Below, piece after piece: positions 7,260 to 63,979 of a stretch of DNA of 64,000 nt. Each line of letters starts with the position of its first letter. The stretch's first letter is position 1. Source of the stretch: Podospora anserina (lineage: Eukaryota). The DNA lies in contig CM030332.1 of assembly GCA_017654855.1 (NCBI GenBank), positions 7,688,001-7,752,000 of the forward strand, read 5' to 3'. The notes under the pieces were generated by a model, which did not search any database, had not been told where the DNA came from, and worked only from the letters and a program-made list of their open reading frames with translations. The position numbers and the translations under genes are program-made.

Positions 7260-7981
7260 TGTTTTCCTGTCATGTTCTCCTCCCTTCAGAAACTTTTCTC
7301 ATAAAGCTTTTCCCACTTCTCCTCACAACTCCCGAGTCAGTCCGGTAGACTCTCCCTCCCAAGCCCCCCAGGTGGAGAAAACCAGGACTTGTTCCCAGGA
7401 TAGCGCCTCTTCTTCCCACCGGCATCTGCTCTTATCCAACCTCGTTGGCTTTTCTTGCCAACACGCAACCCCCCCCCCGTCCCCCCCAAAAAAGAAGACA
7501 GGGGCCAAACTCACCCAGAATGACTGGAGATCAAACCATGAAACGTGGTCGCGTGATACTCGACACTCCTTGTTCCCCCCTTTCCTGCCTCGCCATGCAA
7601 TGTGTCAAGGTGTTTTGGACAGCTGTTCTTCTGTCTACCATCGACATCAACAATCAAACCTTGCGTGGGGAACACAAAACCACCAACACTTGCTTACTTA
7701 TCCCGCTGAGGCTTCCTCAAATCTAACCTGACACGTGCTGCATATCTCAACCTTGATAGGGCCATTTTATATCCTTCAAAACCCCCTTCCAGAACTTCCC
7801 AGAAACCCGGGAAACCCATCACCTGTCTCTGAACGTCCACGCACCTGCCATGTACAAACTCACATGCATATATGCCCCCCCCCCTAACATACCGACCTTT
7901 GCCTACAGTGGGTTGGAATTGTACGTAAAAACAAAATCCTTTCACAGATCTGCAATCCTCCATCGTGACTAATCGGCCTTC

Positions 7982-8308
7982 TTTTTTTATTTAATTTTTT
8001 ATTTAATTTTTTATTTAATTTTTTATTTAATTTTTTATTTAATTTTTTATTTAATTTTTTATTTAATTTTTTATTTAATTTTTTATTTAATTTTTTATTT
8101 AATTTTTTATTTAATTTTTTATTTATTTAATTTTTTTATTTCATTTTATTTTATTTTGTTTCATTATTCTTGATTAAATTTTCATTTTTTATGATTTTTT
8201 TTATTTTATTTTTTTATGTAGTTTTTGTGTTATTTTTTTTTTTTTTTTTTTTTTCATTTTATGGTTTTTTATTTTTTATTTATTTATTCATTTATTTTTT
8301 ATTTTTTA
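7982..8308. repeat. AT-rich island: (TTTTTTATTTAA)n ~12 copies followed by T-rich low-complexity sequence
   Basis: 12-bp periodic unit at ~7983-8130, then degenerate poly-T/TTTA. Confidence 0.9.
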
Positions 8309-8710
8309 CGTACTGTAGAGACCGAACAAAAGACGGCTAGCTATACATAAAACAAAATAACCGGACACCGGTTTCCCCCCCCCGGTCCCGTGTGTGCAGC
8401 CCCCACCACACTCCACCTTGAACAACAACATCACCATTCCCGGCTTCGGTGGTAGGCTGAACATTCATCACCCCATTCCCATCATCATCATCACCATCAT
8501 CATCATCATCCATCGCAACTTCGGGGAGTCGGGGTCCCGGGTCTTACCCTGGTCCGTGGTTTTTGCATCTGCCGTGTTGTGGGATCCACTCAGACCCGCA
8601 CCCGGAAGGAGGGGGGAGGAGGGCCAAGGACTCGCTCCCGTCGCTCGCTCGTTCGGGCGGTTCGGACGGGATCGCGCGGTAAAGAGCGGCGGCGGATGAA
8701 ATGATAAAAC

Positions 8711-18000: not shown

Positions 18001-19116
18001 GAGATTTGTTTTAGTTATGCATGCTTGGCTTGGCAGGTCGGCGAGGAATTTTCTGCGACACACATGCACTGGCGTTACACACGGATCAGGGGATTTGTGC
18101 ACCACAGCATAGCGGTTGTTTGGGCGGTCCAGTTTTTTTTTTATTTTTTTTTTTACACGATGCTTGGCGTAGGGAGGAGCGAGCAATGGCGGTCTTTGCC
18201 GAGTTGGTTCAACGGCTTTTCAACCACATCGATTCCACACATTCACGCATTCATCCAACCATGACACCCCAATGGTTTCTACTTAATCAATCGACGACCG
18301 TCAGGCGCGGGACGAGGGAAGACAAGGGGAGAGAGGGCTTGGCAAGAAGCACAGTACATATATGTCTGAATGCTGTTATAAAGCCTCGAACGGGAGACAT
18401 TTTGGGAGGCAGGCGATTAGTCTCAAAGTTTCGGGCGGCGGACGAGGGCGGCCGTCTGAACGAGGTAACTTTTCATGACTCGGATGGAGCTCTATTTTTC
18501 CCTCAAAAGGAATACGAGGCCAAGGGAGGTGAATTATCATAACACCACACACACACACACACACCACCCACCTATAGTGCCTCTTTATCTAGAAAGAGTG
18601 CCCCTTCCTGTTTTCAGTTATTCTCTTTTTCTTTTTCCCTCCTGGTTTTCCCGATTAGACAAAAAATAATTCTATACTGTTAAACTATACAACATTTATC
18701 ATCATGGTATCCCCGGTTTTTTTTTTCTCGATCTGGTGAATGTGAGGTTACTGTGTAAACGGTGATGCATGTGCCAAGGGGGACTTGGTCATGGTGGAAC
18801 CGTCGGACAAAAGGCGAATGAAGAAAAGGCGGGGGAGTTATCAAACGTCAGTCCTGACTTGACCAAGGTTGGTATCCCGCCGCCGCTGGTTGTATTACCC
18901 AGCTTTGCTAGAGTGCGTACCCTAAAGCATCAGGTTTTTCTTTTTTATTATTTTTTTTGTTTATTTGTTTATTGATTTATTTATTTATTTATGTATTTTT
19001 TTTTGGTTTTTTTGAAGGGTTGTTTTGTTGGGATGATGGGATGGATGGGGCTGGCGGTATGACCCAAAGTCCGTGACCATTTGATATCACCGACAATGGT
19101 TGAGGAGAGAGTGCGT

Positions 19117-19300
19117 GTATGTGTATGTGTATGTGTGTGTGTATATGTGTATGTGTGTATGTGTATGTGTGTATGTGTGTATGTGTGTATGTGTGTATGT
19201 GTGTATGTGTGTATGTGTGTATGTGTGTATGTGTGTATGTGTGTATGTGTGTATGTGTGTATGTGTGTATGTGTGTATGTGTGCATGTGTGTATGTGTGT
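19117..19300. repeat. Compound (ATGTGTGT)n/(ATGTGT)n satellite
   Basis: About 20 copies of 6-8-bp GT-derived units. Confidence 0.92.
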
Positions 19301-20770
19301 TTGCATGTGAGTTTATTAGATTTTTGGGGGATGCTGGACCCGTTGGGGTGGTGGTTTTGGGGGGAAAACACCACGCTTCGCTCTTCACATGGGAATGGGT
19401 CAGGATTCTCTCGTGACATGACACAGCAGGCACAGCAACAGGACAGGCGGGCACGGCATGAAAAACCGAACCTTACCTTGTGGTTACGAAAGATAGTGGG
19501 AAGCACGACAGCAGGTTTGGTTTGCCGTGGTTGGGATTTGGTGGTTTGGACCCTGGGATAAAAGAAGAAGAAGAAGAAGAAACCAAAAATTGCAAGCACA
19601 TGTCGTGGTTAGCTTTGGGGATCGGCGACCCCGGATTTGGGTGTTCTAGAAGGGGAGTACAAGAGTGATGACACATGCATGCATGGCTTGCTTGTGTGTC
19701 GAGCGGTGGTTTGATAGGGTGTTTTTTTGTTTTTTTCCATCCGCCCGGTCGGGACCTGCCACTTGCCTTTGCCTTTGCCTTTGCCTTTGCTGATATCCAT
19801 GCCCTTTCTTTCTTCTCCTTGGCTTTGGCTTTTGTCACTGCTTCCTTGGTTAAAACAGAGAGGGCGGGCTTATTCATGGCCTGTCACTCAGTCACCGGGC
19901 GGCGGGAGGGGCAGCGATAGTAAAACGTGACGGGGGTTGGCGCTGAGGCCGGTTTATTCCCGAGGCGGGCACGGGCTCCGAAGTGTCGATTTTGGGGATT
20001 TTGGACCGGGAAAAGGCTTTTTTTGTCTTGTCTTTGGGGCGGGATATGGAGGTGGGCTTGTGATGTGATATGTCATGGTTGAAGAAGGGGTGACTCCACC
20101 TTGTTCCCTTGCAACTCGAGATTCCACCGCAACAAATCGGCCAGGTGGATGGCACCTTCTGAGAGCAAGATCCGGGGAAAATGTCTTGGTCTTTTTCTCT
20201 CTCAACGGGGGGGGGGGTGCTTTGCCTTTCCCCAGGGTGTCAGTCAGTCACTTGTCATTCATGTTGTTGTGGGTGAGAGCCCCACTTTCCACCCAACACA
20301 CCCATTCTCACAAGCAGCAGCATCATCGTCATCGCTCGCTTTCGCTCACCCCTCATTTCTCATCCTACTCCCCTTCCTCCTGTTCAGCCATACGAGAAGC
20401 GAGGAAAGCGGTCGTCCAATCCAGTTCTGTCCGGCCAAGTTCGAGGACACAGCGGTCAAAAAGATTCTAGAATGCTACACTGCATGATGGAGCCTGTGCT
20501 CGCCACTGTTGTGTCATAGGATACACGTATCTCGTTTTTGTTTGTCTTCCCCATCATTATCGCGCTCATGTTAGTCCTGAGTGGTGGTCGGCTTCTCGGT
20601 TAAGGGCAGGCAGGAAGGAAAGGAAGCGTTCCCGGGCTTCCTCTTCCCAGTTGTTTAGTGCGAAAAACTGAGGGATTGACCATTTTGGACTGGCTCGTCG
20701 GTGAGCCAAAAGACCCAAGATGCTGCCTTGGTGCGGGGGGAGACGTCCTCGATACGGGGACGGGCTTATC

Positions 20771-54734: not shown

Positions 54735-54946
54735 CTACTCAGCAGCAGCAGCAGCAACAGCGTTTGCTTTCGGAACGAACTTGATCTTCGTCTGCTTGAG
54801 CTTCACTGCCGCAGTCGTCGTGGTCGTCGTGGTGACCTTCGCCTTCACGTCTGAAGAAGCAGACGTGCCCTTGACAGAGGTGTTACCCGCGTCGGGGGTG
54901 CTGGCTTCAAGCGCCTTCCTCGATGGCGTGCGCTTCCTCGCCGAGG

Positions 54947-54977
<31 letters not shown>

Positions 54978-57552
54978 AGCCGGAGTCGACGCCTTCGCGC
55001 CCGCAGCCGGTTTCTTGGGGGTAGGCTTCGGACCAGCAGCCACGATGGTGGCCTTGCTGCTCGTGCTCTTGGCCGAGAGCTTGATCTTCGTCGTGGTCGT
55101 GGTCGTGGTCTTGACGCCTCTCTTCCCAAACGTCTTGGTCAGACCCACGCTCGTCACCTTTCGCTGAGTTGTCGTGGTCGTCTTCTTCACCCCGGCTCCC
55201 TTGGTGGACTTGAGCGCGCTCGCCCCGAGAGAGATTGTGCCCGAAACGCTCCTTTTGATAGCCGTAGAAGCCGACTTGGAAACGCCCCTGGCAAGACCTT
55301 TTCCTTTGGCAGCCGCGGTCTTTGCAGCGCCTTTGGCGGCGGCCGTGAGCGTTTTCTTCACCCCGGCCGCAGGTTGGACCTTGCGTTTCTTAGCAGCGTT
55401 CCCGCCGCTCGCCTCATCCTCGGCTCCGACCAAAAGCTCCTTGAGCTTCCGCTTGCCGGCCTTGATCGAGCCTCTGGCCGTCTTCTTCTCCTGCTTCGCC
55501 GGCTTTGGCGGCTTGACCTCCTTCGGCTTGGGACCCAGCACGCCTCTGCAGTTCGCGCTACCACACAGGCACTTCTGCACGTTCTTGGCGGAGAAGGGGT
55601 CAAAGTTGTAGTCGTACGTGAGCTCATCGCCCGTCATGATGGGCTTGTCGCCGGCAAAGAGAGCCATGCGGGGCTGGCCCGAGACGATCCATTTTATCAT
55701 CCGGCAGTTAGGTGAGCACGAGTGGTTCACGAACCGAGCCATGCTGCCAGTAGTAGCATCGATGATCATGTTTTGGTCGAACGACATGAGATAGTAGCAC
55801 TGCCGACCGAATCAGCTCCCGGGCCACGCAGCACGCACACCAGACCAGACGCGCAGGAGACTCACCTCGTTGTCCTTGTACTTTTCGTTCATCCGACGCT
55901 CGCACTCCTCCTCGGTGATGATCTCACCAGTGTACTCCATGATGATCTGGTTGGGCTCAAAGCACCTGGTGCTCCGGACGCCGTAGCCACGATCCGAGGT
56001 CTTGAGAACCTCGACACCTACGCGGAACCGGCCGCCCTTCTTGGTTCTCTCCTGGAGATCTTGGAAGGCACGGTTTTGACAGAATTCTCTGCCGGCGTTG
56101 CAGTTGGTGTCGTCACACTCGTAGAGCATGATGCGGTTCTGGCAATCCTCGGCGCAGCCATCTTCGGGCTTGCAGACGCATTTGGACGAGAAATCCTCGA
56201 AATGGGGCGACTTTTTCCAGTACGCCGCCGCATCGCCAACAAACCGATCTGCGAGCTTTGTTAGACGGTTTCACAGTACAGTCGAATGCGCAGGCAAGCT
56301 TACTCTTCGCGATGGTCCGGTACGCCGGTGGCTTTGGTTGCCCTGGAGGGAGGGGGTTGCACACATCAAAGGGCAGTTTGAAGTCGCGCCCGTGGATGAG
56401 CATGCGGAGGCCGTTGTACATGGGCAGAGGAAGCGTCTTGTTGGCCTTGACGGGCTTCAGAAGCTCTGGGATCTGAGCCAGCTGCTTCTTCTCCTGGGTT
56501 GTCAAGCCCTGGGTGATATCGGTGGGTGTTTCTTGTCCTGCGTACAGGCCCTTCCTGTGCCATTGCTTGACGCGACGCTGCTTGACGGGAGGCCGGACGG
56601 GCTCGGACGGCTCCGTGGTCGCGCGCTCCTTGCTCGTCTCGGTCTTGGGTTTCCCGTCCACCTTGGTCTTCTTGCGGGGTGGCTCAGCGGCAGGATCCAC
56701 GTCCACATACTTGCCATTGCTCCAGACCGTGTACTTGACCGGCCGGGTGTCAATATGAGCAAACTCGTTGGTATCCTGCAGGCGCATCAGCTCGCGCGAA
56801 ATGCGCCCCAAGCTCTGGGCCGACTTTCTGCCCTTTCTCCCCAATGCCGCCACCTTCGTGGCCAAAGTCTCCACAGGCGCACCGGACTGACGCGTAGCCC
56901 TTCGGGTGACAATCGGCGCCTGGACCGGGATCGGTTTCGTTTTCGAAGAGATTCTAGCACCTTTGGGGGTGCTGGTGCCCGAGACGGAGCCGCCGAGCGC
57001 CAGCACGTCAATGCCTGTCGACCTGTTTGCATCCGCCTCGCCACCGGCGTCCCCTGCAATAGTCCTGCGCCGGTTTTCTTGCACACCTTGCCCCGCGACG
57101 CGTCGCCTTCGCTTGTCGGTGCCACTCAACTGCGACAAATTGTAGACCGGTAAACTGGCACGGGCGCGTCGTGGGCGACCAGTGGACAGGGACTCGGTCG
57201 AAGGGAGCGGTTCGGCCACCACTATGGCCTGTCCCACCGGGCTCAGTTCGCCTGGCTGCTGTTGCTGCTGGTTATCGTCGGCGGCAGCTTCATTTTCGAG
57301 AATAGGAATGACAGCTTCGATCGTCGCGTCGGCCATGCTTGCCGGCTTGGTGGCGTCGGGTTCGGAAGCCAGAGACATGCTGTCCGGAGTACACGTGGTG
57401 GGCGGTGTCGAGCTCAGAGAAGCGGCATTGGAAGAATCGTCCGTCGGCGTGGCCGAGAAGCTGGACTCGGACATGATCACGCATCCGAGTCCAGCAGCAA
57501 TCGAAGATGTCGCTACATCGGTCGCTATGGTTGCAGCCATGTCTGTCGCCAT
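54735..57552 (-). CDS. ash1: ASH1-like histone H3K36 methyltransferase (AWS-SET-postSET), 3 exons: 57552-56304, 56248-55866, 55799-54735
   Basis: AWS cysteines (CVCKPEDGCAEDCQNR...CQNRAF), RGYGVR, EYTGE, GSMARFVNHSCSPNC, ELTYDYNF and post-SET CLCGSANCRG. Also RDFKLPFDV, an AT-hook-like GRPRR and a K/T/A-rich tail. Confidence 0.9.
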
Positions 57553-60015
57553 TGAGGGGGGTGCAACTCGCCAGAGAACGCGACAAAATGCTGGCGAGGA
57601 GGCAGCTGCAATGTTGCTGAAGTGGTGAGAAACTCCGGATGCAAGTTGCAAACGCGTCTGCAAGACGTGCCAATTGCACCAACGTAGGCGAGTCAGCGTC
57701 TCGGCGAGGCGGCCTGAGCTGAGAGGCCCACGCAACGAGGTCCCGTAGACGCGGCGTGGACGCAAGGTCCAATCCGAGCAATGCAGCCGAAAACAGAGGG
57801 CGACACACGCGAGGGGGGGTCCTTCAAAGACCTGTTCCCTCAGGGGGGGGGCAAAATCCTGGTTGCAGAAACTTGGGGTTCGTAGAGAGAGCCGAGCGCC
57901 AGGAAAAGGCCAGGCCAATTGCAAAAGTAAACGCGTCGAGAGTGTGAAGAAGCTGTATTCTAGAAAGAAAAGAAGAGAGGGTGCGCAAAAAGGCTTCAAA
58001 AAAAAAAACGAGGCATTCGACCGTCCAGGGGCAGGGGTGGTTTTGCGGAGAGAAGCGCGGTCGAGTGTTGTTGCGTTGTGGAGGAAGAGAAAGGGAAGAA
58101 GACGGTCTTGGATTGGTCGCCGGGGGGCGGGAACCAAAAGGTATTTAAGGGAGAGGCTGGAAGGGGGTCTGTTGAGTGGACTGTGTGTGGATGGACCACC
58201 ACCTCCGGCCGGCCTACCTCACCTCACGTACCTTACCCTAGGTTGACACCTTGTCTCCTTGCCCTATCCCTATCCGTCCCGGGACTACCGACCTTCCTTC
58301 TCACCGTACACCTTGTCTCTGAGATACCAGATAGATATCTGGCATCCGACATCTATCTGATTGCACATTCAAGCCATATTCTACGAACCTCCAGATGTAA
58401 GCACAAAGCAAAAGGTTGAAGGTCTGGACCGATCTCCTCAGCCCGTCATTATCTCGTGACATTCTCGGCGCCTGGTTGGGCCTGTACCGTCTGCTTGTTC
58501 CTCCTTGCTACGTACTTGGTCTAGCTTCCCGGGCTGTCTCCTGCAAACATCCCAGGTTCTGTCCTGGGCTTCGTCTTGGTACCACCCGAGACGGCGCATC
58601 GTGCGTCGTGGGAAAGCTAGCGTTGAGCCTATTCACATTCCAAGCCCCTCGAGACGTCCAGATGTCTGGTACGGGGGCCGGGGTGGACATATCGGTAGAC
58701 TATTTACTTTGTGTGAATGATCTCCTTTGTCAGAGGTCGAGGGGTGATCTGGAATGGCACGGAAATAAAAACAGATGGGTTGCGAGGCATATCAGTGCGG
58801 TGTGCTCAGACCTGGCCTTTTGCCTATCTTTCCCAGCTATAGAAATGGAAACGAGAAGTGGAATTGCTTTTTGCGGTTTCATCCCGTCAAGAGCTGAAAG
58901 AGATGTTTTTGGCCGTGTCGGCATCGGCATCCGAGAAGCTATCGTCCAGTGTGTGGGGGACATCAAGCCAACCGGCTGCACACTTGGATCTGTGACGAGG
59001 GGTTTGGGCGCCAGGACAGATGTCGATTCTTTGGGGACCACGACGTTCCAAGCCCAATGTGGCGGTTACTTCCATTCGACCGCACCTTGGATCGACAGAA
59101 GCAGAGACATCTTACTTCTACACACTTCGGATTTCCAGCCAATGTCAGTTCGGTAGCAGCACACTTTGGAGATGTATCACAAACTCAAACGGTAGACCTT
59201 GAGCCTCTCAAGTTTGTTTGCCAGATGATGGTGTTGCTATTTTGGACAGGTAGATATCACAATCACTGCCCCTCAGCAGCGCCACCAGCATTCCGTCAAG
59301 AAAGATCCATGCTAGCCCCCATGAGACAATGTATCTCCGAGATGGGATATCGACAGTTCGAGAGGCCGTCTCATTCACGGCAATCGACAGATCCAGGTAT
59401 CTTTTGACAGCTTTGCCATTTCGCCCGAGTGTCCAGTGGCGACCTGTTTTTCTGCCTCTTGGCTAGGTATGTTGCAATGCTGGCTGTCTAACCTTTGTGG
59501 CCCATTAGCAAGTGATCCTCGGGGGTCTGTCAACAGTAGTGAAAACACCTCACCGGTCTGGCGATGAGACGATTCAATTTCATCTGGCAGCGAATCTCAA
59601 AACGGGGTGGGTGAGACCCAGTGTCAAGGCATGTGCAGATAGTGTGGTATTCGCACCAGTGTGGACACCAAGGTCGGGGAAACTAACTAGCATCCATGTG
59701 TATCTTGCTCATACGAGAGGGTAGAACCGGCCTGGTTGGATAACAGAGTGCCTGCTTTCTTTCCGGTAGGAGCAGCAGTCACTCCTGACAATCGGGGAAC
59801 CGAACCTTCGAAAGCGGCATCTGGTGCTCCATTTAGCACTCCGATGACGATTTCCTCCTGTACTCATCATTAACCACACGCGAGAGCAGTCATTCGTTGA
59901 ACATTCCATAGGGCTTTATGTTAGCCGGCTGTTGTCTGTTGAGAACACTATCTCTTCTTCGATCCATCGTTTTCGACAGCCTTGAGAGACGGCCACCCCT
60001 CGTTTCTGGTACAGG

Positions 60016-62270
60016 ATGCATGGCGAAGATCTGGAAGGGGCCACGAGCCTCGATCCACAGATGTGAGACCCCTTTGCTGTCCCACGTCATGTTTTCGCGC
60101 CACTGACTTGACTTCGTCGCAGAATGCTGGACTCTTTTTCGTCGATACCAGCGCACGGAGAGGACAGCTGGGGCAGTACTTCAGCAACCAACCGAGACGA
60201 TACCCCAGATACTACTAGAGATGAACCGTCCAACAGACCCAATCCTTCTAGACACGCGCGGTTTCCCTACCCGAAAAATCAACCAGGTCCTCTCAGGAAA
60301 GCCGCAGACGGCACGTGGCACTCCGAAACGACTGTGTACACTCTCAAATGTCCAAGTAAATCCGATGCTGAGGGATAGACACCATCATCAACAGGCACAC
60401 CACCATCTTCACCGGATGCTTCCTTTTATTCAGAACGTCGTTCGCCATCATCAGTAGACCTGCTCTTTTGGACACAAGATCTCTCACTTTCTTCGAAAGG
60501 TTTGCTTCAAGGCAACAGTGATGCAGATTTCTTCATGGGAGAGCTTCGTGGTGGCGCGGGAGGGGGTGGTGGGCGCCGGAGAAGGACATGGGAGAAAGCG
60601 AAGAGCGGGGCCAGGTGGTTGAAGGCGTTTATGACCAGGCGACCTGCCCAAGGACTCCGAGCTGCTGCCGATCCAGAAGAAGATACAGATAGCAAAACGG
60701 CTGGAACAACTGGAGCGTCAGGAAAACTTGGAGCTACAGGAACAACTGTAGTGACAAGAGCTCTTGGAACGACGGCAACTCCTGGGACAGCCGGAAATAC
60801 AGGAACGACTGGCGAATCTAGAATTATTGTGAGAACTGAGATTACTGTGACAGGTGAAACAACTGGGACGACTGGGACCACTGGGACCACTGGGACTACT
60901 GGAAACAGCGAAGACCCTTTTCAACCGCGAAGGCGTTCACGTTCTCTGCCCAACATTGCTGTCAGCCGCTCGTCAAGTGGACCGCAAATATCAGGGGTAC
61001 CTCAGCGAAGCAGTCGACATCGAGCTTCTTCTAACCAACTGCCGTCTCATCCCATTGATACAAGCATTCGGGATTTCGCTGCCCAGGCTTATCCCAGTAC
61101 CAATCCCAGTACGACTGCAGAGACCTGGTGGCAACAAAACACGGCGCCGAGATACGGACCCGGTCGGCTTCGTGGTGGCGCCGGAGAGGGTGATGATGGG
61201 CGACGGAAGAAGGGATGGAAATCTTTCCAGAATTTCATAAAAGGCTCTTTGAAGAAGACACGGACGTCTAGAATAGGGGAACTTGAAACTACGGGAAGCC
61301 AGACAGGGGCCCCAAGACGACAAAGTACGCTCGCCGGAACGTCTACTGCAACAGGCAGTGCGCCTGTTGCAAAGCCGCCAACGTCCAGCGAGACTTACGA
61401 GATGACTACCTCTAGACAGCCCACCGGTACCGAGAGCCCCGTGACCCCCCCTCCAGCTACCCTCGCTCGTTTCAACGCAGGGCTGAGGGAGGAAGCACCC
61501 CCCACTGACTAGCGCAAGTGGGGGCTCAAAGCTGCTGCCGCCCGGGAGGCCGGCAAGCGTGAGATTCGTCGAACTGCGGCTGGTCATCCCGATGCCATCA
61601 GTAGAGCACCGCCAGTGAAGGGTTCTGAACCCGCGGTGAATACTGTCGGAGAACCATGGCCAAAGTATGACCAGAACCTCTGTAAGACTGGCGACAACAA
61701 CCCCCCAGGAACGCGTAACAAGCCTCAAGTAATCCAGCCACTGCCCCAAGTCAAGGAAAAGATACCTATTACCGGCACTGGATTTGATTACTACCCCAGC
61801 ACTACGTTTACGGAGCGGTACCGAAGCCGGCCGATCGAGACGTACGACGACTATGCGGGACCGCCTGTTGAGAAGAAGGATCAGGGGGAGGAGAAGGAGG
61901 TTGTTGTTCCAGGTGATAGCGAGGCGGGAGGATCGAGACGACCTCCGCCGGCTCCTAGGCATGGGCTTGCTCAGCCGGTTCGTCGAGGGCAGCGGGCTCC
62001 TCCCATGCCATCTATTGCCAGTGTTTTGGCTGAGGCCGGGCCGCCTGGGCTTCCGCCACTGGTAAGCAGTCTCTAGGGTGCGGTGAAGGGAAGGATTGTG
62101 CTGACAGGGGACTTTTTGAATAGTTGGTCTCGAGTAAGGATGAGGGTTACGAGGGGGATGACGAGAAGGGCACATCTCTAACAAGCGTCGAGACATCTGG
62201 ACAGCGGGACACTGGAAAGAGAATTGAAGATAGGATTATGGGATACTCAGCGGAATTATTTGGTTTGTAG
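60016..62270 (+). CDS. ~710-aa orphan low-complexity protein with two in-frame TAG codons (60376-60378, 61510-61512); exons 60016-60062, 60123-62061, 62124-62270
   Basis: Track ORFs 60124-60378, 60502-61512 and 61615-62076 share one frame, and the gaps between them contain no stop other than the two TAGs. Canonical introns GTGAGA...CTGAC...CGCAG and GTAAGC...GCTGAC...AATAG join in phase to flanking exons. Confidence 0.7.
60862..60903 (+). repeat. Coding 9-bp minisatellite (ACTGGGACN) encoding Thr-Gly-Thr repeats
   Basis: ACTGGGACG ACTGGGACC ACTGGGACC ACTGGGACT ACTGGA. Confidence 0.85.
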
Positions 62271-63595
62271 TCATAGACTTTTTGATATGACTGGGTAGAA
62301 TGGATTAGCGAAGAATGATAACTAATTGTGAGGAGGTGTTGAATACCGTTTGGGTTGTGCTGAAAATTCTTTAGAATGTGGTTAGATGTCTCAAAGGTTG
62401 GTGGGGAAGTTTTGAAGAGCAAGTGCGTTGCTTATTGTCACGAATATGATGTGGACACCCGCAAAGAACAACCAATAGGGAAGAGGAGGCACGGCGGCCA
62501 ATCAAGAGAAAGGAGGATGGACCAGTAAGAGGTGGATCATCCGGGACATGAAGGAATCATGAGCGATTCCCAGGAATCACTCATGATCCTTAGGAGTCGG
62601 TCATGATCCGGGGAGAAACAGAATGATCCAGGCTTGGCATTAGGTCTATATATACGGAGGAACTAGATAGCTTGCAGATAGTTCCGCAGTATGCAATTCA
62701 CAGTTGAATTCACGGCATCTTGTGTTTACATCGAGACATCTTGTTGTGCACTGTTTAGCTGCACCGAACCAATTGTCAGAAGTTACCTTCAACCCGTATC
62801 CCTTTCAGAGGTTCTGTACAGGGGTTCGTCACAATAGTACTACGGTGCTCAACACTATTTCAACTCCTTATTTAATGCCCTTATAATATTAGCTTGGCTC
62901 CTGTTTGTATTGTCAGGTCACCTTGTTCCTTATACTGTGACGTGCCTGAGGTAAGCAAGCTCCAAGTTGGCGGCCATCATCTATCTGCTGACCAGCCAGC
63001 TCGTTTCACAACAAGTGAGTAATCCAAGCTAAAAAAAAATAAAAAAATCAGTCTGAAGCCTTCTCGACCTCTCTGGCACCCGCCGGTACATGTTTTCCCA
63101 GTCAACCCAACGACTGCTGCCTCAATCACCAAAAATGCTCTTTCAACGCCCCCTCTGCCCTCCCCCTCCCCAAGATGTCGTCAAAAACAGACCCCAAGCT
63201 TTGACCACGCACATCTTCAAACTCCAATCCCTGCCCCGTGCGCGCCCTGCAGCTTCACTAGCCACAAGCGGGAAGCCCCACCTGCCACCCCTGCCACCCC
63301 TGCCACGACCCAAAAAGAACCGCCGGGGTTAGGCAGGGAGGAAAAGGCTCCACTTTTAACGACCTTTTTGACTCTTTTTGGAATTTGGGGGTTGGGGTTG
63401 TTGACTGTTGACTGCTTTGCCATCCACAACCAGAGAGCTTGGAGCTTCCAGCCCCACCAACCAGTACTTGACCATCCCACCTGTCTCGAAACCCACCACG
63501 ACCTTGACGAACATAACCCACCCCACGATCCCCGATCAAGTTCCCCTCCCTCTCATCGAAGACGAAAACAAAGAAACAGAAAACAGATCCCAATC

Positions 63596-63979
63596 ATGAG
63601 CGAAAGACCCTACCAGCCCCGAGGCGGTCACAGAGGAGGAAGCGGAGGAGGCAGGGGAGGTCCTCATCGCGGCGGCGGCGGCGGCAATCGGGGCGGCGGT
63701 CGCGGGGGTCACCAGAACCAGCAGGGACAACAACACCAAGGCGGGTCCGGGGAGCAGACGGAGCGTCCCAAGAAGGAGAATATTCTTGACCTGAAGAAGT
63801 ACATGGACAAGAGGATTACGGTCAAGTTTAATGGCGGACGGGAGGGTAGGTTGTTCTCAAACTTGGGGAAATGGTTAAGCAGATGCTGACATGGAGGAAT
63901 GAACAAGTGACGGGTACGCTAAAGGGGTATGATGCGTTGATGAATTTGGTGCTGGATGAGGTTCAGGAGGCGGTCAGAG
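63596..63979 (+). CDS. LSM7: U6 snRNA-associated Sm-like protein LSm7, partial (exons 63596-63845, 63908-63979; continues beyond the window)
   Basis: RPKKENILDLKKYMDKRITVKFNGGRE|VTGTLKGYDALMNLVLDEV after splicing; RGG-rich N-terminal extension. Confidence 0.93.

Follow-up and report, generated by a model that had tools for sequence, protein, structure and literature searches.

The stretch analysed here, hereafter the window, comprises 64,000 nt of the Podospora anserina genome (contig CM030332.1 of assembly GCA_017654855.1, positions 7,688,001 to 7,752,000, forward strand), and the subject of this work is a plus-strand gene at window positions 60016-62270 whose reading frame is interrupted by two premature TAG codons. 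From the ATG at 60016 to the TAG ending at 62270, sequence and frame reading give a joined frame of 2133 nt, or 711 codons, carried by three exons (exon 1, 60016-60062, with the start codon; exon 2, 60123-62061, 1939 nt; exon 3, 62124-62270) and split by two GT..AG introns, intron 1 of 60 nt (60063-60122) and intron 2 of 62 nt (62062-62123). Its stop codons are TAG at codon 101 (60376-60378; TAG 1, site 1), codon 479 (61510-61512; TAG 2, site 2) and codon 711 (62268-62270, the final stop in exon 3). Both premature stops lie in exon 2, 1134 nt apart, and the 711 codons contain no TAA, TGA, or frameshift. Depending on the stop used, the predicted products are 100, 478, and 710 residues long. We call the part before site 1 segment 1 (60016-60375), that between the two sites segment 2, and that after site 2 segment 3. 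The initial annotation had described this architecture correctly, down to the absence of other lesions and the three product sizes; it had also taken the gene for an orphan and proposed that adenosine-to-inosine (A-to-I) editing of both UAG codons restores a full-length protein.

Open stretches of 377 and 187 codons in this frame align with uninterrupted proteins of relatives, and the observation is therefore more than a chance one. A repeat search identified in-frame Thr/Gly-rich coding repeats at 60703-60902, with a period of 18 at 60703-60747 and of 9 at 60862-60902, and both preserve the frame, as had been claimed for the coding minisatellite. An open frame of 414 codons also runs antisense, on the minus strand at 60991-62235; it is probably a by-product of composition, as homologues and splice signals all lie on the plus strand.

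To follow the gene in sequencing data, we used runs in which it is represented. Twenty-four runs were listed, of which 20 hold all or part of the stretch and none is recorded as RNA. The Logan contigs examined, from which minority variants are dropped, came from X15, X17, and X18, which belong to three studies and are presumed to be RNA (the RNA-like runs), and from X13, a DNA run of a somewhat different strain. Intron 1 is skipped at exactly 60063-60122 in contigs of two of the three RNA-like runs, X15 and X18, which join 60062 to 60123 with sides of 182 and 73, respectively. Intron 2 is skipped in one of the three, X17, where the short side is only 22 letters, and is retained in contigs of X15 and X18, the frame then stopping at the TAG at 62074. 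With intron 2 retained, the last 48 residues are replaced by VSSL and this stop. Logan proteins likewise occur in both intron 2 forms, spliced (P0007 and P0004) and retained (P0011, P0008, and P0012). P0007 carries the exon 2/3 junction and matches exon 3, and 196 of its 197 residues are those of the window's spliced translation, the sole mismatch being at the start codon. Since spliced forms are present in all three RNA-like runs, the locus is transcribed from the plus strand and both introns are real. The spliced N-terminus is found as well at the start of P0005, a protein model from the sister species P. pseudopauciseta.

The premature stops are read in the same data. At site 1, contigs of all three RNA-like runs cross the TAG at 60376 without any other letter; at site 2, contigs of X15 and X17 bridge the TAG at 61510 with A read, and an X18 contig, likewise with A, covers it and ends 24 nt past. 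In the DNA run X13, a single contig over 59800-62465 has both TAGs and differs from the window at three letters elsewhere, 60647 C>T (A191V), 61152 A>C (R359S), and 62365 A>C. Taken together, the X13 contig and the TAG-bearing run contigs establish that both TAGs are genomic, common to at least two strains, and retained in mRNA. A sequencing error as the origin of the TAGs is ruled out by the run contigs and by the protein models of sister species.

These models come from an annotation made, according to the available text, with MAKER using ab initio predictors and P. anserina evidence (PMC10936905). In P. pseudopauciseta the locus is annotated as two genes, of 100 (P0005) and 489 (P0010) residues. 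P0005 ends exactly at codon 100, and P0010 extends from M154 to the intron-retained end with only codons 456-479 missing. Because the "intron" that removes these codons ends in the AG of the stop codon, the P. pseudopauciseta stop at site 2 is a TAG. The P. bellae-mahoneyi model P0009, of 245 residues, is without codons 456-481. In two further lineages, those of P0008 (12.4-kb contig) and P0012 (8.2-kb contig), the called frames open at the earliest start codon past site 2, as would fit a stop at that site as well. The simplest reading of these models, inferred from proteins, is that both sister species have the site 2 stop and P. pseudopauciseta also that at site 1, implying stops common to the species complex. 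The 486 codons aligned with P. pseudopauciseta contain no frameshift.

The sister models bear on a caveat of the initial annotation, that each TAG might instead be the 3′ splice site of a weak in-phase donor (GTGTAC at 60334 and GTGACC at 61441), so that the stops would leave the transcript with small in-phase introns at 60334-60378 and 61441-61512. The MAKER models of both P. pseudopauciseta and P. bellae-mahoneyi do have an intron over site 2, and a CTGAC branch-like motif precedes TAG 2. Yet the acceptor is at codon 479 in one annotation and at codon 481 in the other, a discrepancy to be expected of ab initio workarounds, and the RNA contigs of the window species support neither. No joint that removes either TAG occurs in the contigs of the three RNA-like runs, three of which read through site 1 and two through site 2, though both real introns do appear there as joints. 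Splice donors have a consensus G at +5, and neither GTGTAC nor GTGACC has it; the site 1 interval would measure 45 nt, versus 60 and 62 nt for the real introns. We regard such introns as hardly credible, and splicing out of the TAGs is ruled out where the run contigs read straight through them.

To find homologues, exon 2 was translated with TAG read as Trp (P0001, 650 codons) and used as the query. Word-based searches, which scored only the 8000 candidates sharing the most words, returned two matches at near length, the Triangularia setosa protein P0002 and part of a 938-residue Apiosordaria backusii protein, three matches at shorter lengths, and, with segment 2 alone, two that added nothing new. 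P0002, of 596 residues and uninterrupted, has 33% identity with the query over 93% of its length (E = 1.4e-55), in support of exon 2 as drawn. An exhaustive HMMER search among 1.84 billion representatives gave five proteins at E ≤ 0.001, including the 671-residue T. verruculosa protein P0006, which is also uninterrupted and aligns with the frame in which TAG is Trp; none of the five lies outside Podosporaceae. A scan of metagenomes with P0001 gave 97 pattern matches, none of which was confirmed. The label of orphan gene thus gives way to homologues in Triangularia and Apiosordaria, and the uninterrupted P0002 and P0006 indicate that the ancestral gene was one frame.

As judged from sequence, the gene is restricted to Podosporaceae and its predicted protein of about 710 residues is largely disordered. 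No Pfam family scores above its cut-off for P0001, P0002, or P0006; a sub-threshold Collagen match to the coding repeats (15.3 bits versus a cut-off of 27.2) reflects composition only. The ESM Atlas model of T. setosa P0002 has a pLDDT of 0.41 and a pTM of 0.14, in keeping with a protein predicted to be disordered, and ESM Atlas gave no usable match to P0002. The family has three motifs. An N-terminal motif in segment 1 is common to all three distant homologues. A repeated motif, with R or E as first residue, is present in two copies in the window protein, at 60543-60590 and 61167-61195 on the plus strand (direct repeats D2 and D4 link the two, and homologue alignments also define the second), and in two copies each in P0002, P0006, and P0003. 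Its LRGG core and basic residues recall the ubiquitin C-terminus and dibasic processing sites, which we take to be a resemblance only. The C-terminal motif reads IP.TGTGF.YY...F.ER.R.RPI..Y.DYAGPP.

To examine whether the frame beyond the stops is still of consequence, we compared divergence along the protein. Relative to P. pseudopauciseta, 11 of 100 residues differ in segment 1, 11 of 302 in segment 2, and 4 of 184 in segment 3, the last count dropping two positions that differ solely through intron retention. Segment 1, the only part translated without stop correction, thus evolves fastest (11/100 versus 15/486 downstream); by eye, from the window's codons, 7 of its 11 changes fit G<->A transitions. 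Given that species of the complex are >98% identical in genic DNA, as stated in the available text of the annotation paper (PMC10936905), these differences mark a fast-evolving gene. Only one indel was seen across the lineages, and it preserves the frame (P0004 and P0008); no other lesion is visible in segment 3 of the P0008 and P0012 lineages. Pooled over five relatives, with the intron-retention tail (two rows) and one start-codon artefact removed, 41 of 633 covered positions are substituted. Downstream of the first stop (segments 2 and 3), substitutions affect 1 of the 108 positions that are identical in the two Triangularia proteins and 29 of the 425 others (Fisher p = 0.017). Over all segments the corresponding figures are 3/129 and 38/504 (p = 0.028), and for a looser set, identical to at least one Triangularia protein, they are 8/231 versus 22/302 downstream (p = 0.061) and 15/289 versus 26/344 over all segments (p = 0.259). 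The counts are small, several partitions were tried, and the comparison is at the protein level only; we read the result as a modest indication that the frame past the first stop is still of consequence.

The distribution of these changes also bears on the idea that the functional product is the 100-residue N-terminal peptide, with the rest of the message after TAG 1 forming an extended 3′ untranslated region. The P. pseudopauciseta annotation has just such a model, P0005, and the conserved N-terminal motif lies in this very segment. Against this, segment 1 is the fastest-evolving part of the gene and its conserved positions are substituted as often as the others (2/21 versus 9/79); what sign of constraint there is comes from the part after TAG 1, not from the part before it. 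Moreover, a stop followed by a spliced intron exposes an mRNA to nonsense-mediated decay, as should be the case for a message ending at codon 101. This decay pathway has been discussed for P. anserina (PMC9801653, in the part available). Overall, we consider a 100-residue functional product improbable. Translational readthrough of the UAGs by a near-cognate tRNA, which would yield some full-length protein at all stages in the absence of editing, would account for the downstream constraint, and TAG 2 is followed by C, a base that favours leaky termination in eukaryotes. However, two such events in succession would leave very little full-length protein, and no known readthrough motif was recognised at either site; we give this explanation still less credence than the short peptide.

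We next consider the sites as editing substrates. In the available text on Fusarium graminearum, the bases favoured around the edited A are C or U at -2, U at -1, A or G at +1, +3, and +4, and G at +2, with -1, then +1, then +3 being the most important positions; predicted hairpin loops hold more than 62% of the editing sites, with more editing in stabler loops, and similar cis features are stated for Neurospora crassa (PMC9600606). Site 2, in the context C-U-[A]-G-C-G-C, has four of the six favoured bases, at -2, -1, +1, and +3, which include the three most important positions; the U at -1 is automatic for any TAG. Folding places its A in the 10-nt loop (61507-61516) of a predicted RNA hairpin at 61499-61524 on the plus strand, closed by a perfect 8-bp stem (61499-61506/61517-61524). 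The hairpin has a predicted energy of -15.3 kcal/mol in 41 nt (z = -1.81), 9 of 200 shuffles being as stable, and when flanks of 30 to 200 nt are included the probability of its closing pair stays at 0.90. Such a setting is rare: the two strands of the window together contain 852 TAG triplets, of which 271 place the A within a hairpin loop, and in 12, site 2 included, that loop is closed by at least eight contiguous base pairs. Site 1, in the context A-U-[A]-G-A-C-A, has three of the six favoured bases. Its small hairpin is equalled by 47 of 200 shuffles and is lost in longer contexts, where the A stays unpaired, so that a stable hairpin at site 1 was rejected. Site 2 is therefore the better predicted editing substrate of the two.

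The reading that we put first, tentatively, is that the gene is a "puk1-like" premature-stop-correction (PSC) pseudogene, and we rank it above a young transcribed pseudogene. In F. graminearum, 71 PSC pseudogenes need UAG-to-UGG editing in perithecia; according to the available text, 6 of these are two-site, the products of 43 are hypothetical proteins, and disordered regions occur in 50, and their TAGs derive mostly, not always, from TGG (PMC10776026). Genes of this kind were first noticed as stops in wrongly annotated introns (PMC5381528, available part). The locus would fit this profile because its predicted product is a largely disordered, hypothetical protein and a two-site form is known among the 71. 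On this proposal, the ancestor of the P. anserina complex would have gained the two in-frame TAGs, and in vegetative cells translation would end at codon 101. In the fruiting body, a sexual-stage deaminase of the Tad2/Tad3 type would convert UAG to UIG at 60377 and 61511, to be read as Trp, and full-length protein would require that a molecule be edited at both sites, with site 1 as the limiting step and site 2 as the better substrate. In favour of this reading we count stops that look old and are kept in the spliced transcript, the uninterrupted proteins of relatives, an otherwise intact frame with its modest sign of downstream constraint, the spurious site 2 introns of the sister annotations, and the hairpin at site 2. 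A more elaborate version, in which the two UAGs are edited with differing efficiency or timing (site 2 readily, site 1 sparingly), the nested products of 100, 478, and 710 residues result, selection keeps the double gate across the complex, and editing creates a new residue, is an unlikely one.

Several observations weigh against editing as the explanation. No A>G change, at 60377 and 61511 or elsewhere in the surrounding 2.7 kb, is present in the three RNA-like runs; because their developmental stage is unrecorded and contigs lose minority variants, this absence of G is weak evidence. No protein spanning either site with Trp was found in two large protein collections. The position of site 1 is Glu in T. 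setosa and a gap in T. verruculosa, and site 2 falls in a stretch without counterpart in both Triangularia proteins. Hence "restorative", the word used in the initial annotation, is doubtful if taken strictly: the outgroup residue at site 1 is Glu and the insert that holds site 2 is lineage-specific, and a Trp at either site would bring back nothing ancestral. The gene evolves fast, both coding single-nucleotide polymorphisms within the species (A191V and R359S) are nonsynonymous, and the GC content at third codon positions (GC3) is low, 0.43-0.54. The P. bellae-mahoneyi model begins at codon 418 and ends early, and, shortened at both ends, may hide further lesions. The species complex is young, so that an intact frame proves little. 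Base context and structure at site 1 are the poorer of the two. For the codons present in this gene, the probability that a new nonsense change creates TAG is 0.386, and two TAGs are thus expected by chance at p = 0.149, too weak for the identity of the stops to serve as evidence by itself. Finally, no study of editing sites in Podospora was found in the literature searched, and the re-annotation paper makes no mention of editing.

Much of this speaks equally for the principal alternative, a young unitary pseudogene, in which a fast-evolving, dispensable gene was disabled before the complex radiated and is still transcribed and spliced, any editing being incidental and the product a 100-residue remnant or nothing useful. 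We hold this to be a serious contender, ranked second. The high amino acid divergence at >98% DNA identity between species, the two nonsynonymous polymorphisms with no synonymous one, the low GC3, the A read at both sites in RNA-like contigs, the P. bellae-mahoneyi model shortened at both ends, and the outgroup Glu at site 1 all favour it. In addition, about 3.6% of substitutions in the gene would give stops, and with so little divergence the lack of further lesions is not very surprising. Against it stand the downstream substitutions that spare deeply conserved positions (p = 0.017), the lack of any frameshift against P. pseudopauciseta with an in-frame change as the only indel, and the combination of two TAG stops with a rare, stable hairpin loop at site 2.

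On such a history the stops may have arisen by a transition, or a change of the type caused by repeat-induced point mutation (RIP), in CAG or TGG, or perhaps by a GAG>TAG transversion at site 1. RIP is usually called at TpA/ApT >0.89 and (CpA+TpG)/(ApC+GpT) <1.03. The whole gene, with indices of 0.79 and 1.09, falls short of both thresholds, and this tells against a RIP-made pseudogene; Thr/Gly-rich codons may account for part of the low second index. Within the gene, the 253-nt segment 1 alone passes both thresholds (1.00 and 0.89), and the block 60001-62000 has the lowest (CpA+TpG)/(ApC+GpT), 1.06, of the 32 2-kb blocks of the window, a point on the pseudogene's side. The initial annotation had argued against RIP from intact codons, of which the frame has 10 TGG, 12 CAG, and 12 CAA. 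A mild RIP-type process may have produced the stops, a matter of how they arose rather than of their present fate.

If the PSC reading is correct, the gene would be the first stop-correcting editing target described in Podospora, as far as the literature searched extends; the genus is a classic fungal model of sexual development, senescence, and meiotic drive. The gene would be a naturally double-gated case as well, with stops common to several species, and so bear on the dispute over whether such editing is adaptive, on which papers have taken both sides. The locus is not a new mechanism, whether it is a PSC gene or a young pseudogene. Whatever the outcome, two sister annotations contain site 2 introns unsupported by the RNA contigs of this species, and the P. 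pseudopauciseta locus is split.

The surroundings of the gene were also surveyed. Upstream, a minus-strand neighbour at 54735-58218 reads by eye like a Cys-rich pre-SET/SET-type methyltransferase; downstream, a plus-strand neighbour at 63023-63889 appears, again by eye, to have an Sm/LSM-like end after a Gly/Arg-rich region. A high-copy repeat begins just past the 3′ end of the gene, at window positions 62430-62700: over 62439-62500 the summed contig depth of X13 climbs from 49 to about 1500, loose ends of several contigs fall at 62430-62436, and 62572-62609 holds 1.9 copies of a 20-nt unit. Farther away, the window contains an AT-rich minisatellite of period 12 (7931-8326) and an (GTGTGTAT)n array of period 8 (19087-19348).

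Among the closest known systems are the edit-dependent pseudogenes of N. crassa, of which Liu et al. reportedly described about fifty needing A-to-I editing, in PNAS in 2017. They share with the window gene the order Sordariales, the mechanism proposed here, and, from the available literature, the same sequence and loop preferences; the window gene differs in that the exhaustive search gave homologues only within Podosporaceae. Editing has been reported in two members of this order, N. crassa and Sordaria macrospora (PMC11156358, available part), and in P. anserina itself ADAT-type genes are differentially expressed in sexual development (10.1101/2024.12.09.627484, likewise). A second comparison is stop-loss editing of canonical UAG codons, which has the same chemistry and codon change. 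In the accessible text for F. graminearum, 323 of 1559 canonical UAG stops of edited genes are themselves edited, about a fifth, a base rate for incidental UAG editing (10.1101/059725). Unlike these terminal stops, the UAGs of the window gene are internal to an ancestral frame, so that editing would rebuild the protein rather than extend it.

Set beside a unitary pseudogene, the locus is alike in having nonsense mutations in a fast-evolving, lineage-restricted gene whose transcription persists, and unlike in that its stops are TAG only, frameshifts are lacking in several lineages, conserved downstream positions are spared, and a stable hairpin loop of a rare kind holds site 2. The comparison with the PSC genes of F. 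graminearum, PUK1 and the 71 of Qi et al. 2024, differs in that editing was demonstrated for those genes and is proposed from sequence for this one, and in the Glu found at site 1 in the outgroup. On the side of likeness, and as far as the available text of that study goes (PMC10776026), both present in-frame UAG codons in an intact, transcribed frame, the two-site form exists among them (6/71), and their products are mostly hypothetical, disordered proteins. As at this locus, their stops lie under spurious annotated introns, are common to related species, and do not necessarily derive from TGG.

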